Part shown: positions 11,759 to 58,632 of the stretch, piece by piece
Layout: every line of letters begins with the position of its first letter
Numbering within the stretch: the first letter of the stretch is position 1
Assembly: GCA_020852295.1 (NCBI GenBank)
Contig: JADZBC010000015.1
Location: 1-62,145 of the forward strand
Reading direction: 5' to 3'
Origin: a bacterium
Lineage (GTDB): Bacteria; Patescibacteriota; Saccharimonadia; CAILAD01; JADZBC01
Length of the DNA: 62,145 nt
Made by a program: the position numbers and the translations under genes
The notes under the pieces: model-generated
Seen by the model: only the letters and a program-made list of their open reading frames with translations
The model's database searches: none
What the model was told of the DNA's origin: nothing

Positions 11759-14413
11759 TTATGCACTATCAAAATGTTTGGCAAGCTTGTGCTCAGCCTG
11801 CTTGGTGGCATCCGCTATCTGATTTTGGGTTGGGTTTGGTCCCAAATCAAACACAAGGCGAATGGCAAAACGCTTTTTGGAGTTCTTCGCAAGAGCCTCG
11901 TCCGAGAAACTACTCAGATACTCAATTTCGGTTAAATGAGCAATGCTTTTGGCTGCCACTTCAACATCTTGCCACATCACTTGCGTAGCAACTTCCACGT
12001 TCACATCTCGCGTAACAAGCTGATAGGCCGGCACATCGACCGCCTCCAAGACACCAATGCACAGCATGGCTTGCACCACATCGACCGCGCCGTAACTTAC
12101 CTCATCCTTAATTCCAAATTTATTAAGCACCGCTGGCTTAACCTGATAGAGCTGCCCAAGCACTTGGCCGCCTACCTCAACGTCAAAACTGCGGCCGCTA
12201 ATCCCAGCGCTTGTTTGGCAGGGTCGGTAGGTTATAGCGGCCCGGCCAAACACCGCTTCAAGTGCTGCCTTAACTCGACCAATACTACCATCGCCAGTCC
12301 CCGCTACACCAATCACAACTCGCTCCTGCGGCAACGGCTGGCCCGCCAACGGAATATAGACATGAGATGCCTCAAAGAATGTCACCTTCTTTTTATTGAG
12401 ACGATTCGCCGAGATAGAGAGAAGATGACTCGCCAGCAAGTCAGATCGTAAATACTGCTGTTCGACCGTGAGGGGATTATGGATCTCAAGATGCTGGTTT
12501 GCCTTGACACCAACGGATTCGAGTGCTTGTCGACTCACAAATGCATAACTAATTACCTCATATAGACCACGCGAAACCAGTTGGTGTTTAAGTCGCATAA
12601 TGGTCGGTAAAAGCTGATGATCAAGCGTATTGGTCGCCGGTAAGTCGGGCAGTGTCATCGGGATATTGTCATAGCCAATCAGCTTAGTAACCTCCTCAAC
12701 AATATCCTCTTCAAGCCTCACGTCGGTGCGCCACCACGGTGGCTTGACGCTAAATATATGATTGAAGCTCGGAATTGGTCGAGCAATAAAGCCGAAGTCC
12801 GGTCGGCTAACGACTTCGCTGAGGGTCAATGTGTGTATGGCTCCTGACTGATCGGCGCCGATGATTTTTTGCTTGGAAGCAACGACGCCAAGCATGGTTG
12901 GCTTTTGTAGTGAGCTACCACATTGCACAACATCGCCTGGGCGTGCCATATCCGAATCAATCGAATTACGCTGCCACTGCTTCAGACTTTCCTGGTCACA
13001 ACTCAACCCAAGTGGCGCAAAGACGTCATTGATAAAACTATAGACACTCTCATGATTACGTTGTGATTTGGCCTGCTCGATTGCTTTGGTTAGACTGTAG
13101 TGACTTACATCAAATCCTAGTCGGCGGAGTCCTGCACTAAACTCTTTATCATTCAGCTCAATACCGATGAGTTTTTCGGCTCGACGTTGCGAAAATTTTA
13201 CCGGCTGAAGTTCGAGCGGTTTTACAAAATCGTCATAGACAGGGGAGAGCAATACACCTTCGCAGCACTCTTCAAGTAAGCCGATAAGGCGCGCGGCTGC
13301 ATCGTGCGCCAAGTGAGGGGGGAGAGAGCGCTCGAATCGAGCCGATGCATCACTTCGCAACCCATGGCGCAGCGCTGCTTTACGCACGCGCGGACCATTG
13401 AACGTTGCGATCTCGAGGATAATCTCTTTGGTGGCTTCAGACACCTCGGTGTCAATTCCGCCCATCACGCCCGCCAAAGCCACAACCTGTGCATCGTCTG
13501 CGATAACAAGATCCTCTGGCCCTAGCTTGCGCTCCTTACCATCTAGTGTTGTAATTTTTTCCGAAGACAGGGCAGAGCGCAGTCGAATTTCGCCATGAAG
13601 CTTTGCGGCATCATATGCATGAGTAGGCTGACCGAGCTCAAGCATCACAAAGTTCGTGATATCAACGACTGGGCTCACACTCCGTAGACCACTGCTCTGC
13701 AAGTTATCCACAATCCACTGCGGAGTTTTCACGGCGTTGTCCACCCCTATTTTCACGGCTATAAACCGACTTGCCTCTTCCCCGTTCTTGACATATTTGT
13801 TTTTTATTGATTTATATGTTTTTTGGCTAATTTGCGGATATTTTACCTCATTTAGACTCTCCCGCTTGTCAAAGGCTGCAACTTGGAGTGCTACCCCGAC
13901 CAAACTCAGAAAATCCCATCGATTTGGGGGTGTCTTAATATCCACGATAATGTCGTTATTATCTATGTCGCACAATTTTTTTCCTACAGGTGTAGTAGGG
14001 TCGAGCACTAGTATTCCTTCGTGATCATCGCTGATTCGCAGTTCGCGCTCCGAGCAAAGCATGCCATTTGAAATAATGCCGCGAATTTTCGATTTCGTAA
14101 TCTTCGTTCCATCGGGTAAAACCGCGCCAACCGTAGCAAGCACAACTATTTGATCCTTCGCAACATTTGGCGCGCCACACACAATCTCGAGTTGCTCATC
14201 GCCGCCAATTTGTACAGTCACAATCTTGAGTCTGTCGGCATCAGGATGTTTTTCGACTGTCATCACTTGAGCTGTGATGATCTTATCGTCGTAGCGAATT
14301 GGCTGCCGAACCTCCTCAACTTCAATCTCAGTTCGTGAAAATATCTCGACCAGCTGATCGATCGTGACCGGATTTTTTAGATATTGGTTGATTTGTTTAA
14401 GTCCGATAAGCAT
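11759..14413 (-). CDS. pheT: Phenylalanine--tRNA ligase beta subunit (with about 110-aa insertion in the B5 region)
   Basis: 884 aa. N-terminal tRNA-binding OB fold (KHPDADRLKIVTV...CGAPNV), B3/B4, B5 motif WWRTDVRLEEDIVEEVTKLIGYDNIP, C-terminal FDX-ACB-like domain. Start overlaps the pheS stop. Confidence 0.93.
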   Translation of the reverse strand: MLIGLKQINQYLKNPVTIDQLVEIFSRTEIEVEEVRQPIRYDDKIITAQVMTVEKHPDADRLKIVTVQIGGDEQLEIVCGAPNVAKDQIVVLATVGAVLPDGTKITKSKIRGIISNGMLCSERELRISDDHEGILVLDPTTPVGKKLCDIDNNDIIVDIKTPPNRWDFLSLVGVALQVAAFDKRESLNEVKYPQISQKTYKSIKNKYVKNGEEASRFIAVKIGVDNAVKTPQWIVDNLQSSGLRSVSPVVDITNFVMLELGQPTHAYDAAKLHGEIRLRSALSSEKITTLDGKERKLGPEDLVIADDAQVVALAGVMGGIDTEVSEATKEIILEIATFNGPRVRKAALRHGLRSDASARFERSLPPHLAHDAAARLIGLLEECCEGVLLSPVYDDFVKPLELQPVKFSQRRAEKLIGIELNDKEFSAGLRRLGFDVSHYSLTKAIEQAKSQRNHESVYSFINDVFAPLGLSCDQESLKQWQRNSIDSDMARPGDVVQCGSSLQKPTMLGVVASKQKIIGADQSGAIHTLTLSEVVSRPDFGFIARPIPSFNHIFSVKPPWWRTDVRLEEDIVEEVTKLIGYDNIPMTLPDLPATNTLDHQLLPTIMRLKHQLVSRGLYEVISYAFVSRQALESVGVKANQHLEIHNPLTVEQQYLRSDLLASHLLSISANRLNKKKVTFFEASHVYIPLAGQPLPQERVVIGVAGTGDGSIGRVKAALEAVFGRAAITYRPCQTSAGISGRSFDVEVGGQVLGQLYQVKPAVLNKFGIKDEVSYGAVDVVQAMLCIGVLEAVDVPAYQLVTRDVNVEVATQVMWQDVEVAAKSIAHLTEIEYLSSFSDEALAKNSKKRFAIRLVFDLGPNPTQNQIADATKQAEHKLAKHFDSA

Positions 14414-15417
14414 TAGAATTGCCTCAAGTAACGGAAGTTAGGTCGCCAAAAGTAGCGAATATCACTGACGCCGTATTTTACCATTGCGATACGCTCTGCT
14501 CCTAAACCAAAGGCAAATCCGGAGTATCGTACACTATCAATTCCGGCGTTCTCTAAGACCTGCGGGTGCACCATACCGGCACCGGCCATCTCGAGCCATT
14601 CGCCGTTATACCATGCATCTATCTCAACCGACGGTTCGGTGTATGGGAAGAAACTCGGACGCAGCCGAATCTTGGTTTCTTCACCAAGTATAGCTCGCAT
14701 CACGTGATTAAGTGTTCCCTTGAGATCGCTAAGCGACACATTCTCGCCAACCACAAGTCCTTCTATCTGATAAAACGACCAGGAATGAGTTCGGTCTTCA
14801 TCTTCATTACGGAATACCCGACCAGGCACAATAATCTTAAATGGCGGCTCATGCTGCTCCATAAAACGGACCTGCATGGCCGATGTTTGAGTGCGTGGCA
14901 AATGCGTATCTGGCTCATCTACCCCCTGCTTCTTCAGATAAAAAGTATCCTGCATATCACGAGCTGGGTGCTCGGGTGGCTGATTGAGGGCTTCAAAATT
15001 GTACCAGTCAGACTCGATTTCGGGACCGTCAACAATGGCGAATCCCAGCGAACTAAAAACGTCATAGACGGTCGAGAGTACGTGCGAGATCGGATGTAGA
15101 TGACCATAAGGCTGACCATATTCTGGTGTGGAGATATCAATTGGCGGAAAAGCTTGCTCCTCGAGAAGACCCTCTATTCGCTCACGTGCCAACTGCTCAA
15201 GCTGCTTCTTTGCCTGATTAAGCAGTGGGCCCTGTAGCTTCTTCTCCTCAATCGACAGCCCGGGCAGATCATTCAGCCAACTCTGGATCGGACTTTTTGC
15301 ACCAAGATATTTTGAGCGTACCTGATTAATCTCCCATTCATTGGTCGCTTCCTGTAGTGCCTTCTTCGCAAGATCTACGCTTTTTTCTAGTTCTACTTTG
15401 GAAAATTTCGTCATCAA
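14413..15417 (-). CDS. pheS: Phenylalanine--tRNA ligase alpha subunit
   Basis: 334 aa. Class II aaRS motifs (HPARDMQDTFY, VFRNEDEDRTHSWSFYQIEG, GAGMVHPQVL, GFAFGLGAERIAM). Confidence 0.95.
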   Translation of the reverse strand: MMTKFSKVELEKSVDLAKKALQEATNEWEINQVRSKYLGAKSPIQSWLNDLPGLSIEEKKLQGPLLNQAKKQLEQLARERIEGLLEEQAFPPIDISTPEYGQPYGHLHPISHVLSTVYDVFSSLGFAIVDGPEIESDWYNFEALNQPPEHPARDMQDTFYLKKQGVDEPDTHLPRTQTSAMQVRFMEQHEPPFKIIVPGRVFRNEDEDRTHSWSFYQIEGLVVGENVSLSDLKGTLNHVMRAILGEETKIRLRPSFFPYTEPSVEIDAWYNGEWLEMAGAGMVHPQVLENAGIDSVRYSGFAFGLGAERIAMVKYGVSDIRYFWRPNFRYLRQF

Positions 15418-15806
15418 TATGCCCTTCTCGTTCTGAAGTACAGTTCAACCACCACAAGCGTCAGTACAAACAGAACAATATCTCGCATATTAAGGCTGCC
15501 GAGAGATTTGAGTGCCAACAGAACAGTTACCCCAAGAGAAATTATTACTCCGGTACGTAGACTCCCCGACAATAACTTCGATAACTTATCCTGATTTGCA
15601 GGTTTGCGAAATCTAAGACCATAGCCAATAAGCGCCGCCAAAGATGCAAGAAAAACAAACAGGCCGATAAACCAAATTGTGACACCGCCCGGCCCCAACT
15701 CCTTTGGTGTAGTACCAAATAGGATTAGAAACACATAGCCACCAGCGACTAGCAAAGAAATAAAAAGAGCAGCAAGCTGCATTAAAAGTTTATTTTGCAC
15801 TTTCAT
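15414..15806 (-). CDS. Hypothetical small membrane protein (4 predicted TM helices)
   Basis: 130-aa hydrophobic ORF overlapping the pheS start by 4 nt. TATAAT-type -10 box about 20 nt upstream. Confidence 0.55.
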   Translation of the reverse strand: MKVQNKLLMQLAALFISLLVAGGYVFLILFGTTPKELGPGGVTIWFIGLFVFLASLAALIGYGLRFRKPANQDKLSKLLSGSLRTGVIISLGVTVLLALKSLGSLNMRDIVLFVLTLVVVELYFRTRRAY

Positions 15807-15975
15807 ATCGGTTTTATTATCTCAAATCATGATTATAGGTACAAGTCAATAAATATTGAATACATTAATTATTTCATTGAATGCAAATTATTTTTCGAAC
15901 ACTTTTTTTGTTCTTTTTTGTGTCACAATGCTCTGCGCGGGATCATCTTCATTTTTTTTCAAAAAAACGATAAAC

Positions 15976-15997
15976 AAAAAAACACCCGTCTGGGTGT
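15976..15997 (-). terminator. Intrinsic terminator (minus strand)
   Basis: Minus strand reads ACACCCAGACGGGTGTTTTTTT: a 6-bp GC-rich stem followed by a T7 run. Confidence 0.65.
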
Positions 15998-16405
15998 TTG
16001 TCCGTAAAAATGGTTACGGGCCAACAAATGTGGCCGTTAAAGTTAAGAAACTAGATTGCCACTTGTTGGCCCGGGATGAGCCCTAGGTTTCCCTAAGGTC
16101 AAAGTTTGGTTTTGGGATCGCGATACTGTGCGATCGACCAAAAACTTCCCTGCCATCCTTGTGGTTAATAGTCAGGGCGCTGAAGCTGTAGAAGAGCAAG
16201 CTCTCACACAGCTAGCAGCACTCTGACTATTACCGTCGGGATAGTAGTAACTACAAGATGTAGCTGTCCGCCCTAGAACAGTAGGGAAAATCCGTCTAGA
16301 AACAAGGGGGCTGTTTCTAGATCGGACTACCCCTACCGTTGGGTCCTTTGCGAGTTCAGGACCGGCGATGATGTTTTTTTTATTTTTGTTTTAATGAACG
16401 ATGTT
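15976..16405 (-). ncRNA. Candidate structured non-coding RNA of unknown class (about 430 nt)
   Basis: Bounded by promoter TTGACA-N18-TATACT (16412-16441) and the terminator at 15976-15997. At least 8 stable hairpins, including a 67-nt extended hairpin (TAATAGTCAG...CTGACTATTA), a GAAA-capped stem and a 14-bp stem (GGCCAACAAGTGGC/GCCACATTTGTTGGCC). No ORF with an SD. Distinct from ssrA and rnpB found elsewhere in the window. Confidence 0.45.
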
Positions 16406-16411
16406 GGATAT

Positions 16412-16441
16412 AGTATAGCACGACGCTTATGCTTATGTCAA
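16412..16441 (-). promoter_or_regulatory. Sigma70-type promoter TTGACA-N18-TATACT
   Basis: Plus strand shows agtata at 16412-16417 and tgtcaa at 16436-16441. Located just after the trpS 3' hairpin and points into the ORF-free region. Confidence 0.55.
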
Positions 16442-16510
16442 CACTTTTTGTGAATTTTAATAGTTGTCTCCAGGTTAAACCTGGAATTTCGTTGTAAAAA
16501 TTACACGTCG

Positions 16511-17494
16511 CTAAGTTAGGCCGATTTTTTGCTTTATTCCGTTAAGTTTCTTCTGAGCGATGCCTGCAGCCCGTTGGCTCCCCTCCTCGATAACGTCATC
16601 GAGTCGTTTTTTGTCTTGTCGGATAACTTCGTAGTCCATTTGTAATTGTGATATTTGCTCAACTACAAGCTCAGCCAGCTCAGTCTTGAAGGTTCCATAG
16701 CCGACTCCTGCATACTTATTGGCTACCTCGGGGACCGACATATCGCTAAATCCTGCATATACCTGGAGAAGATTCGCGATGGCCGGCTTATCATCACTCA
16801 GCTCTATTGTACTGCCTGAGTCGGTCACTGCTCGCTTAATTTTTTTGGTAATTACTTTTGGCTCATCGGCAAGCATGATATTTCCATTCTGATTCGCATC
16901 GCTCTTACTCATCTTGATTGTAGGTGTAGTCAGGCTCATGACTCGAGCACCGACTTGCGGTAGGGCCGGCTCGGGTACCACAAAGCAGTCGCCGTAGATA
17001 TTGTTCATGCGAGTAGCGATATCTCGCGTTAGTTCGACGTGTTGCTTCTGGTCTTCGCCAACCGGCACGATATCGGCACTGTAAAGCAGAATATCGGCCG
17101 CCATGAGTACTGGATAGGTGTACAGCGCCACCACCTGACCATCTGCACCGCGTTTACTACTCTTGTCTTTGTACTGAGTCATGCGATTGAGCTCGCCCAT
17201 TGTCACATAATTTTGCAATATCCAGCACAGTTCTGCATGGGCGGGCACACGTGACTGCACAAAAATAGTTGATTTGCGAGGATCGATACCGACCGCTAGC
17301 AGCCAAGCAACGGTATCATAGATATTGCCGCGCAGCGTCTCCGCATCTGGACGGACGTTGAGCGTATGTAGATCTGGTATAAAGAAAAATGCCCGCCCCT
17401 GATTCTGCCAGTCGACCCACGGCTTCATCGCTCCTAGGTAATTGCCAATGTGCATCTTGCCAGTCGCCTGCACCCCCGAAAGTATGGTTTTCAT
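16511..17494 (-). CDS. trpS: Tryptophan--tRNA ligase
   Basis: 327 aa. Class I aaRS with a HIGH-like MHIGNYLGA motif and the KMSKS motif (KMSKSD). Confidence 0.95.
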   Translation of the reverse strand: MKTILSGVQATGKMHIGNYLGAMKPWVDWQNQGRAFFFIPDLHTLNVRPDAETLRGNIYDTVAWLLAVGIDPRKSTIFVQSRVPAHAELCWILQNYVTMGELNRMTQYKDKSSKRGADGQVVALYTYPVLMAADILLYSADIVPVGEDQKQHVELTRDIATRMNNIYGDCFVVPEPALPQVGARVMSLTTPTIKMSKSDANQNGNIMLADEPKVITKKIKRAVTDSGSTIELSDDKPAIANLLQVYAGFSDMSVPEVANKYAGVGYGTFKTELAELVVEQISQLQMDYEVIRQDKKRLDDVIEEGSQRAAGIAQKKLNGIKQKIGLT

Positions 17495-39148: not shown

Positions 39149-39536
39149 TGGTGGAGCTGCCGGGAATCGCACCCGGGTCCATCAGACCGTTCAGATAGCC
39201 AACTACAAGCTTAGTTTGCTTGGTATTTGTTTGAAAAGATCACGAGGCTTTAAGCAAACCAAAAACTCCGTGCGCTTTCCCTAGAGAGTCTTAGTGCTTT
39301 GCCCTAGGCAGCAAAACAAGCAATCAGATGTATTGACGCCCTCACCTATATCTGATGTCTAGATGAATGGACGGCATTCGAATTTAAGCGAATGCTGGTG
39401 CAAAAGTAGGCATGGCAAAAGCCGCGCGTACTTTGCTAGCAAGTGATTTTACACTTATTTGGGTTGGACAGCTAACGTGTATCCAGCCGGCTTGCGTCTA
39501 TCTGTCAAGTTACCGATGTCGAAGCTAAACAGCCCC
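39149..39536 (-). ncRNA. ssrA: tmRNA (transfer-messenger RNA)
   Basis: Minus strand starts GGGGCTGTTTAGCTTCGACATCGG and ends GGACCCGGGTGCGATTCCCGGCAGCTCCACCA (T-arm, acceptor stem, encoded CCA). An internal frame ending GCA TTC GCT TAA gives a candidate tag. smpB is present in the window. Confidence 0.9.
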
Positions 39537-58257: not shown

Positions 58258-58265
58258 ACATAGCA

Positions 58266-58632
58266 CTAATAAGTAAGCTATAAGCCGAATTCTGTATCCG
58301 TAAACGGACGGCAGCCATCTATCTTGGCAAAAACCACGTCATAAGCAATGCTGTCTGATCGTGCGACTTACCTATTGGGAGCGAGCAACTCCTCTGCAAG
58401 GCAGAAAGGCCCATAGTCTTGCAGCAGATGGGGTTTACCACCACCCTATGTCACCATAGGGCGCTGTGCGCTCTTACCGCACTCTTTTCACCCTTACTCC
58501 CGAAGGAGCGGTATCGTCTCTGTGGCACTTTCCCTAGGGTCACCCCCGGTTGCCGTTAGCAACCATCCTGCTCTGTGCTGTTCGGACTTTCCTCTAGGAT
58601 AAAATCCCAGCGACTGCCCACTTACTTATTAG
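58266..58632 (-). ncRNA. rnpB: RNase P RNA, bacterial type A
   Basis: On the minus strand the two ends pair as P1 (CTAATAAGTAAG / CTTACTTATTAG). Contains GAGGAAAGTCCGAAC, GGGTGAAAAGAGTGCGGTAAGAGCGCAC and ACAGAATTCGGCTTATAG, the hallmark conserved blocks. Confidence 0.9.

Follow-up and report, generated by a model that had tools for sequence, protein, structure and literature searches.

Few large structured RNAs are known in bacteria, and RNase P RNA, transfer-messenger RNA (tmRNA), signal recognition particle (SRP) RNA, OLE and ROOL/GOLLD each opened new biology. Here we describe a gene for such an RNA on the minus strand between trpS and pheS in a 62,145-nt stretch of a Saccharimonadia genome (GCA_020852295.1, contig JADZBC010000015.1, positions 1 to 62,145; referred to as the window). 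It resembles OLE (RF01071), ROOL, GOLLD and the raiA motif in that all are 400-600 nt long, have their own promoter and terminator, and arrange covarying helices around invariant junctions and loops; they are also confined to particular lineages, and their function cannot be read from the sequence. It differs from them in that it matches no Rfam model, its host is a member of the Saccharimonadia in the candidate phyla radiation (CPR) rather than a Firmicute or a phage, and it is a single-copy, syntenic chromosomal gene, not a phage- or plasmid-borne one. The RNA's family is undescribed and comprises large structured RNAs of 400-590 nt, present in single copy in Saccharimonadia, between trpS and a unit encoding a membrane protein and PheST. 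A literature search returned no paper that connects an RNA of this kind with Saccharibacteria or Patescibacteria, and no large structured RNA described for Patescibacteria. We are rather confident that this is an independent non-coding RNA gene of a new family. Going further, we propose that it is a free-standing non-coding RNA gene of ~430 nt whose product may act in trans as a housekeeping structural RNA, probably as the core of a ribonucleoprotein (RNP), a reading to which we assign a probability of about 0.6.

The gene occurs once in a 0.82-Mb genome that is 99.6% complete. Of 61 relatives in the same order (Saccharimonadales), BLAST recovered the RNA in 55, among them 40 of the 42 high-quality ones; the relatives searched were Candidatus Saccharibacteria/Saccharimonadales (Patescibacteria, CPR), and the homolog set comprises 50 non-identical sequences of 403-589 nt. 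Beyond the order, a covariance model of the 5' half (R1) gave one further match among 300 phylum-wide sampled genomes, in G229, which belongs to another order of the same class. Next to trpS, G229 carries a homolog that is clear and G060 one that has diverged further, both representing other lineages of the class. Another 14 genomes of the class show no trpS-pheS linkage and no gap of RNA size ahead of pheS. Among the matches listed, pattern scans of viral and metagenome collections gave only chance ones, and those of a genome collection mostly chance ones. Order and orientation are the same in every RNA-bearing locus, namely trpS, the RNA, a ~130-aa protein with four predicted transmembrane segments (4-TM), pheS and pheT; one genome has an inserted purD that separates the RNA from the membrane-protein-pheS unit. 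Model R1 scores 110-155 bits in the sense direction versus ~30-40 bits in antisense; therefore, the minus strand is the functional strand. The initial annotation, made from the sequence of the window, had read the interval as an independent unit for a ~430-nt structured RNA of unknown class. This is supported: the RNA corresponds to no Rfam 15 family, and its sequence and fold recur in 55 of the 61 relatives with compensatory changes. Genomes of ~0.8 Mb keep little that is dispensable, and thus a ~0.5-kb RNA gene retained across a class of CPR bacteria, with a promoter among the best conserved in the region, is likely to be important.

The predicted fold is unusually stable. The minimum free energy (MFE) structure of 15976-16410 has -183.8 kcal/mol, versus -110.7 +/- 5.2 kcal/mol for 100 dinucleotide shuffles (z = -14.2), and forms a chain of at least seven hairpins; the elements of the RNA and the genes flanking it all lie on the minus strand. 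The G+C content of the folded core is 47-50%, versus 25% in the adjacent spacer. From 5' to 3', the order is an A-rich leader, P1, P2, a junction, P3, P4, the motif GGGAAG, a 3' domain consisting of P5a, P6 and P7, the motif GUAAC(CA), a variable spacer and the terminator. The stable helices named in the initial annotation are all part of the MFE fold, displaced by a few bases at most. The unpaired leader GUUCAUUAAAACAAAAAUAAAA (16373-16399) is conserved, with the alignment consensus GUUCAUUAAAA(A)CAAAAAUAAAA. P1 (16342-16363) is closed by GGUCC/GGACC around a conserved large loop, YUGRNCUC..AAA, which reads UGAACUCGCAAA in the window copy. P2 (16278-16339) is a long irregular hairpin of ~60 nt in which GTAGGG/CCCTAC surrounds TCTAGAAAC/GTTTCTAGA, with the invariant apical loop CCCCCUU at 16304-16310. 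It is followed at 16249-16277 by the junction J2/3, whose conserved CUGUUCUAGGG is common with the base of P2, and by the small hairpin P3 (AGCUACAUCUUGUAGUU); the junction after P2 reads CUACUGUUCUAGGG in the alignments. P4a/P4 (16150-16247) is a 92-nt unbranched hairpin, TAATAGTCAG...CTGACTATTA, with the closing helix CUAUCC/GGAUGG. The invariant purine junction GGGAAG (16145-16150) forms the entry of the 3' domain, in which P5a (16109-16144) nests GGTTTTGG/CCAAAACC (as RNA, GGUUUUGG/CCAAAACC) around GAUCGC/GCGAUC, P6 (16081-16098) is CCUUAGG-GAAA-CCUAGGG, and P7 (16017-16073) is a three-tier hairpin, GGCCAACAAGTGGC/GCCACATTTGTTGGCC, with a U-rich internal loop and an apical mini-hairpin. 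The conserved GUAACCA (16011-16017) lies directly 3' of P7.

Comparison of the homologs reveals that the pairing of P1, P2, P4 and P7 is kept while their sequences change, and that several unpaired motifs are fixed. For P2, 91.4% of the cells are paired in an alignment of 48 sequences built with the covariance model, versus at most 57% in slid controls; both sides have changed in 12 of its 22 pairs. P7 gives the same paired fraction, 91.4%, in a sequence-only MAFFT alignment of 29 sequences, versus at most 46% in slid controls, with 12 of 18 pairs changed on both sides. The stem of P1 differs in sequence in 38 of the 51 homologs that fold it, and the loop (10-14 nt) is kept. All 49 of 49 homologs have the P4 hairpin, whose median size is 28 bp and 74 nt and whose sequences are largely different; in L083 and L188, its closing helix carries a compensatory change, GGAUGG to GGACGG together with AUCC to CCGUC. 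P3 varies in size and sequence between families, and the P5a/P6 region keeps two hairpins in homologs that have other sequences and other loops there, the P6 loop being GAAA, UUCG, UCAU or UUUU. Insertions and deletions fall in the hairpin tips. As for the unpaired motifs, the CCCCCUU loop is invariant in all homologs, G229 and G060 included. Within GGGAAG, which is also found in G229, G9-G11 are invariant and A12-A13 nearly so among 29 diverse sequences; GUAACCA is conserved in most families and is absent from families f4 and f6, G229 and G060.

Several additional pairings were considered. A pseudoknot between the P1 loop and J2/3 was rejected, as it shows no covariation. The long-range pairing AUGGU/ACCAU, proposed by RNAalifold to close the 3' domain, was also rejected: the partner of GGAUGG is CUAUCC, which lies upstream, this pairing shows a compensatory change, and f4, f6, G229 and G060 lack ACCAU. 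A switch between J5 (GGUNGGGAAG) and the 5' strand of P2 was discarded because P2 covaries in G229 and J5 does not. A closing helix resembling loop E, formed by GGGAAG and CGUAAC, overlaps base pairs of P7; L018 (UUUCUC) supports some pairing, and this helix is left as tentative.

The RNA is predicted to constitute its own transcription unit. The trpS-to-next-gene gap of 700 bp holds the RNA gene, and the minus-strand promoter that the initial annotation had placed there, TTGACA-N18-TATACT, was recovered by a promoter scan at 16412-16441 as a sigma-70 promoter with 11 of 12 consensus matches and a TG-extended -10; it is the sole promoter-like site found in 15400-17000. The -35 TTGACA occupies 16436-16441, a conserved spacer TAAGCATAAGC with a tandem TAAGC occupies 16425-16435, and the extended -10 TGCTATACT lies at 16412-16420. 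In the alignments, this promoter, including the spacer and the TG-extended -10, is kept across ~50 homologs. Conservation of this kind is unusual for a spacer and hints at a binding site for a regulator or at a promoter of a special class. With the transcription start placed ~7 nt past the -10 box and the 3' end at the U run of the terminator, the predicted primary transcript is ~430 nt long (15976-16405). The intrinsic terminator expected ~430 nt downstream is indeed present at 15976-15999, as an 8-bp G+C-rich hairpin, AAACACCC-AGAC-GGGTGTTT (as RNA, AAACACCC-AGAC-GGGUGUUU), followed by a T/U run. The downstream unit (11759-15806), which comprises the 4-TM protein gene, pheS and pheT, has its own -10 box, in line with the TATAAT box noted earlier for the next gene.

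We find no sign that the body of the RNA encodes a protein. The longest complete open reading frame (ORF) on either strand has a median of 61 aa in the 50 homologs and is not conserved, and the two plus-strand ORFs of the window (60-76 aa) have no Pfam match. The view that the interval holds no ORF of note is therefore upheld: the ATG frame starting in AAGGATGG overlies the invariant RNA motif GGAUGGN-GGGAAG and meets a stop after five codons in the nearest relatives, and no small protein frame is conserved in the window copy.

The 5' end of many homologs carries very short frames. In ~28 of the 50 homologs, a short frame lies directly after the A-rich leader and begins AUG-CCA-CA, covering family f5, and part of f1, the family of the window copy, has a related frame that begins AUG-AAA (MKSAIPP). 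A frame of 7-9 codons ending in Pro-Pro-stop is found in 17 homologs (MPHxKPP, MPYKIPP, MLHIKPP, MKSAIPP), and a 14-codon frame ending in Asp-Pro-stop in six. Changes in these mini-ORFs are synonymous at the third position (CCA/CCT/CCG), the stops are UAA or UAG, and longer frames of any sequence run up to the UGA at the start of the P1 loop motif UGAACUC, where they stop. Examples of mini-ORF loci in relatives are L008 1359-1524, L012 1349-1525 and L002 1547-1695. The window copy retains the A-rich leader and, to judge from its sequence, has lost the mini-ORF frame; there is a UAA and then no start codon. We considered whether aromatic-rich long leader peptides act as Phe/Tyr sensors and rejected the idea, since the AT-rich sequence explains the composition and no codon run is conserved.

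Considering these features, we propose the following picture. The variable hairpins would serve as scaffolding, and the invariant loops and junctions, that is, the C5UU loop, the P1 loop, GGGAAG and GUAAC(CA), may be where a protein or RNA partner makes contact. At the 5' end, the A-rich leader could be a landing pad that recruits the ribosome (30S) or S1, and in about half of the homologs it would drive a frame of 7-15 codons ending in Pro-Pro-stop or Asp-Pro-stop. In E. coli, Pro-Pro and Asp-Pro are reportedly the C-terminal dipeptides that slow termination most (Hayes, Bose and Sauer, 2002). On that basis, a ribosome that terminates here would be parked on or just before P1, at the 5' end of the RNA, where it could protect or gate the RNA, shielding it from 5'-end-dependent decay or coupling its folding to translation status. 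An A-rich leader with a very short frame at the extreme 5' end is also found in the ermC/ermA leaders, in B. subtilis hbs and in the cryIIIA STAB-SD. There, however, mRNAs are protected, whereas here the body is non-coding, the frame is missing from the window copy, and an effect on stability would be an extrapolation. Several points weigh against our proposal of a trans-acting structural RNA with a ribosome at its 5' end. The termination effect is reported for E. coli. The mini-ORF is also absent from families f2, f3, f4 and f6 and so cannot be central to the core function; because these families and the window copy lack the frame, it would be an accessory module. Moreover, the fixed, co-oriented position upstream of pheST in every locus also suits a cis-acting leader.

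Indeed, a giant leader or attenuator of the membrane-protein-pheS-pheT operon, sensing a tRNA, an amino acid or the ribosome and gating read-through of the terminator, has to be weighed seriously. In other bacteria, pheST is under attenuator or T-box control. The RNA studied here shares with the E. coli pheM-pheST attenuator and the Firmicute pheS/trpS T-boxes a position upstream of pheST, a leader peptide in many homologs and an intrinsic terminator at its end, and in ~40 loci, two other orders included, it has the orientation of the membrane-protein-pheS unit and lies directly upstream of it. It is, however, four times larger than those leaders, and it shows no conserved terminator/anti-terminator alternative, no run of regulatory codons and no T-box or specifier signature. 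The homolog terminators are unrelated in sequence and stand at a variable distance, 20-70 nt, from the conserved core, so that no conserved anti-terminator pairing is available; the alternative pairings J5/P2 and AUGGU/ACCAU are without covariation. The T-box model (RF00230) gives no match at E<=10, as the initial annotation had anticipated, a candidate UUC/UUU specifier in the leader is not conserved (L020 has none), and UGGU pairs in cis within helix P4a, with compensatory change. The window copy lacks a leader ORF, and where the ORF exists it is ~400 nt away from the terminator, which speaks against membership among leader-peptide attenuators. The downstream genes carry their own -10 boxes, purD sits after the RNA in one genome, and such a gap is missing ahead of pheS in 14 further genomes of the class. 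We therefore regard a cis-acting leader as unlikely. We give about the same low weight to the possibility that the RNA is a trans-acting regulator in the manner of S. aureus RNAIII, in which the CCCCCUU loop would pair with Shine-Dalgarno (SD) regions (AAGGGGG/AAGGAGG) and a small peptide would be made in some lineages. RNAIII and the Rsa RNAs (UCCC loops) are likewise ~0.5-kb multi-hairpin RNAs with an exposed C-rich, SD-complementary loop, and the size and the 5' ORF, present here in many homologs, recall RNAIII. The C5UU loop does not vary, long ORFs of the source genome show a ~15-20-fold enrichment of AGGGGG and AAGGGG at positions -20..-4, G060 has an anti-SD-like loop of its own, ACCUCCUUUU, and an internal AAGGGGGA in genera g19/g20 could pair with the loop. 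Yet no common theme is obvious among genes that have an AAGGGGG SD, and base-pairing small RNAs do not usually preserve an architecture of 400 nt and its invariant junctions throughout a class. RNAIII itself is not known to be conserved across a class with invariant junctions, and the ORF seen here has 7-15 codons and a stalling C-terminus, unlike a toxin peptide.

Two further explanations carry much less weight. One is that a universal RNA, SRP (4.5S) RNA or 6S RNA, has diverged so far that Rfam misses it; RF00169, RF01854 and RF00013 find nothing genome-wide, and the missing RNA could hide here. Since the genome has no detectable SRP RNA or 6S RNA, the test for a disguised SRP was worthwhile. 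RF00169 and RF01854 matched neither the region (E<=10) nor the whole genome (E<=1), RF00169 gave no match in 31 relatives or in 301 Patescibacteria, and the alignment contains no conserved GNRA loop with the AGCA symmetric-loop signature in any hairpin, which agrees with the earlier remark that the SRP helix-8 motif is missing. The protein partner is absent too: the Ffh M domain (PF02978) was found in 0 of 41 genomes of the order, a one-contig genome among them, all control genomes scored, and a six-frame translation of the source genome has no SRP-GTPase G1/G3 motifs. SRP RNA in disguise was rejected on these grounds, and 6S RNA (RF00013) was rejected because it matches neither the region nor the whole genome and because a multi-hairpin chain is unlike its single bubbled helix; a divergent universal RNA is thus very improbable. 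The other, a protein-coding gene in decay, or the remnant of a mobile element or phage, that happens to fold well, can almost be dismissed. Plus-strand ORFs of 60-76 aa do exist, but they are neither conserved nor matched by Pfam, the insertions and deletions fall in hairpin tips, the helices show compensatory changes, and the gene is single-copy and strictly syntenic with a conserved promoter. A trans-acting structural RNA, probably in an RNP, remains our preferred reading.

A more specific version of this preferred reading holds that the RNA is the core of a hitherto unknown, class-wide, essential RNP or ribozyme that works with the translation apparatus and possibly takes over a task linked to the ribosome, for example targeting, rescue or quality control, for which other bacteria use known RNPs. 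It was considered because of the anti-SD-like C5UU loop, the leader that may load ribosomes together with its putatively stalling mini-ORFs, and the place between two aminoacyl-tRNA synthetase genes; as the lineage seems to be without SRP (no Ffh M domain, no 4.5S RNA), the RNA could stand in for such a task. We hold this version to be improbable, less so than a hidden SRP or 6S RNA.

Other known families were tested as well. At gathering score, Rfam 15 reports nothing in the window besides tmRNA and RNase P RNA, and permissive scans of the region (E<=10) and of 20 homologs (E<=1) gave only chance-level hairpin matches, for example to miRNA precursors. OLE, ROOL, GOLLD, raiA and HEARO were excluded by the absence of a model match at these thresholds (window at gathering score, region at E<=10, 20 homologs at E<=1). 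Leader families gave nothing either, whether in the window or in the 20 diverse homologs. A tRNA-like or tmRNA identity was rejected, since ARAGORN finds nothing in 15800-16600 and the genuine tmRNA lies elsewhere (39149-39536, Rfam scan); RNase P RNA is likewise elsewhere in the window (58265-58629, Rfam scan), so that the initial annotation was correct about both. The idea that the P1 loop mimics the tRNA-Phe anticodon (U-GAA) was rejected, since its triplet varies (GAA, GAU, GUA, GGU, GGA). A 5S rRNA or other rRNA fragment was rejected, as there is no rRNA match at E<=10 and the look-alikes GAACUC, GAUGGUAG and AGUAGGGAA stand in Watson-Crick helices or in another loop context; the resemblance to 5S motifs is treated as chance. 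The source assembly contains no 16S primer-site sequence and no recognisable 5S rRNA.

New in this work are the test of the SRP idea, which refuted it, a synteny map at class level, the module of mini-ORFs ending in Pro-Pro-stop or Asp-Pro-stop, and the rejection of several attractive pairings and of the membrane protein as a partner. The mini-ORFs offer a testable handle on how ribosomes may engage with a non-coding RNA. Saccharibacteria, which are very small symbionts belonging to the CPR, can be cultivated and genetically modified by natural transformation (PMC10633639), and therefore deletion, pulldown and structure work is feasible.

The apparent absence of SRP from the same lineage is a separate and surprising point. 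Neither SRP RNA nor the Ffh M domain was found, and, as far as the genome sequences tell, the lineage seems to lack SRP altogether. Translation initiation signals in the source genome are also of interest. AGGGGG and AAGGGG serve as SD variants beside AAGGAG, and TATAAT is the most enriched hexamer at positions -20..-4 of long ORFs (37/557), which suggests many leaderless or near-leaderless mRNAs. In G060 (L162 ~2420-2445), the loop ACCUCCUUUU, which is the canonical anti-Shine-Dalgarno sequence, caps an extra hairpin that exists besides the CCCCCUU segment.

In the downstream unit, the gene for the 4-TM membrane protein (130 aa, 15414-15806) overlaps the start of pheS (14413-15417) by four bases, and pheT follows at 11759-14413. 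No Pfam family matched the 4-TM protein. In OLE, the protein OapA is dedicated to the RNA, and we asked whether the 4-TM protein could be a dedicated partner of the OLE/OapA kind. This was rejected: pheS is also preceded by a homolog (29% identity) in one genome from a different Patescibacteria class, at a locus that offers no RNA-sized gap and hence no room for the RNA, so that the adjacent protein is not RNA-specific. On the other side, trpS (16511-17494) is the invariably syntenic neighbour upstream of the RNA gene. A CCAGG...CCTGG hairpin (TCCAGGTTAAACCTGGA) at 16469-16485 directly follows the stop codon of trpS, a short way upstream of the RNA promoter, and it is probably a terminator-like hairpin of trpS.

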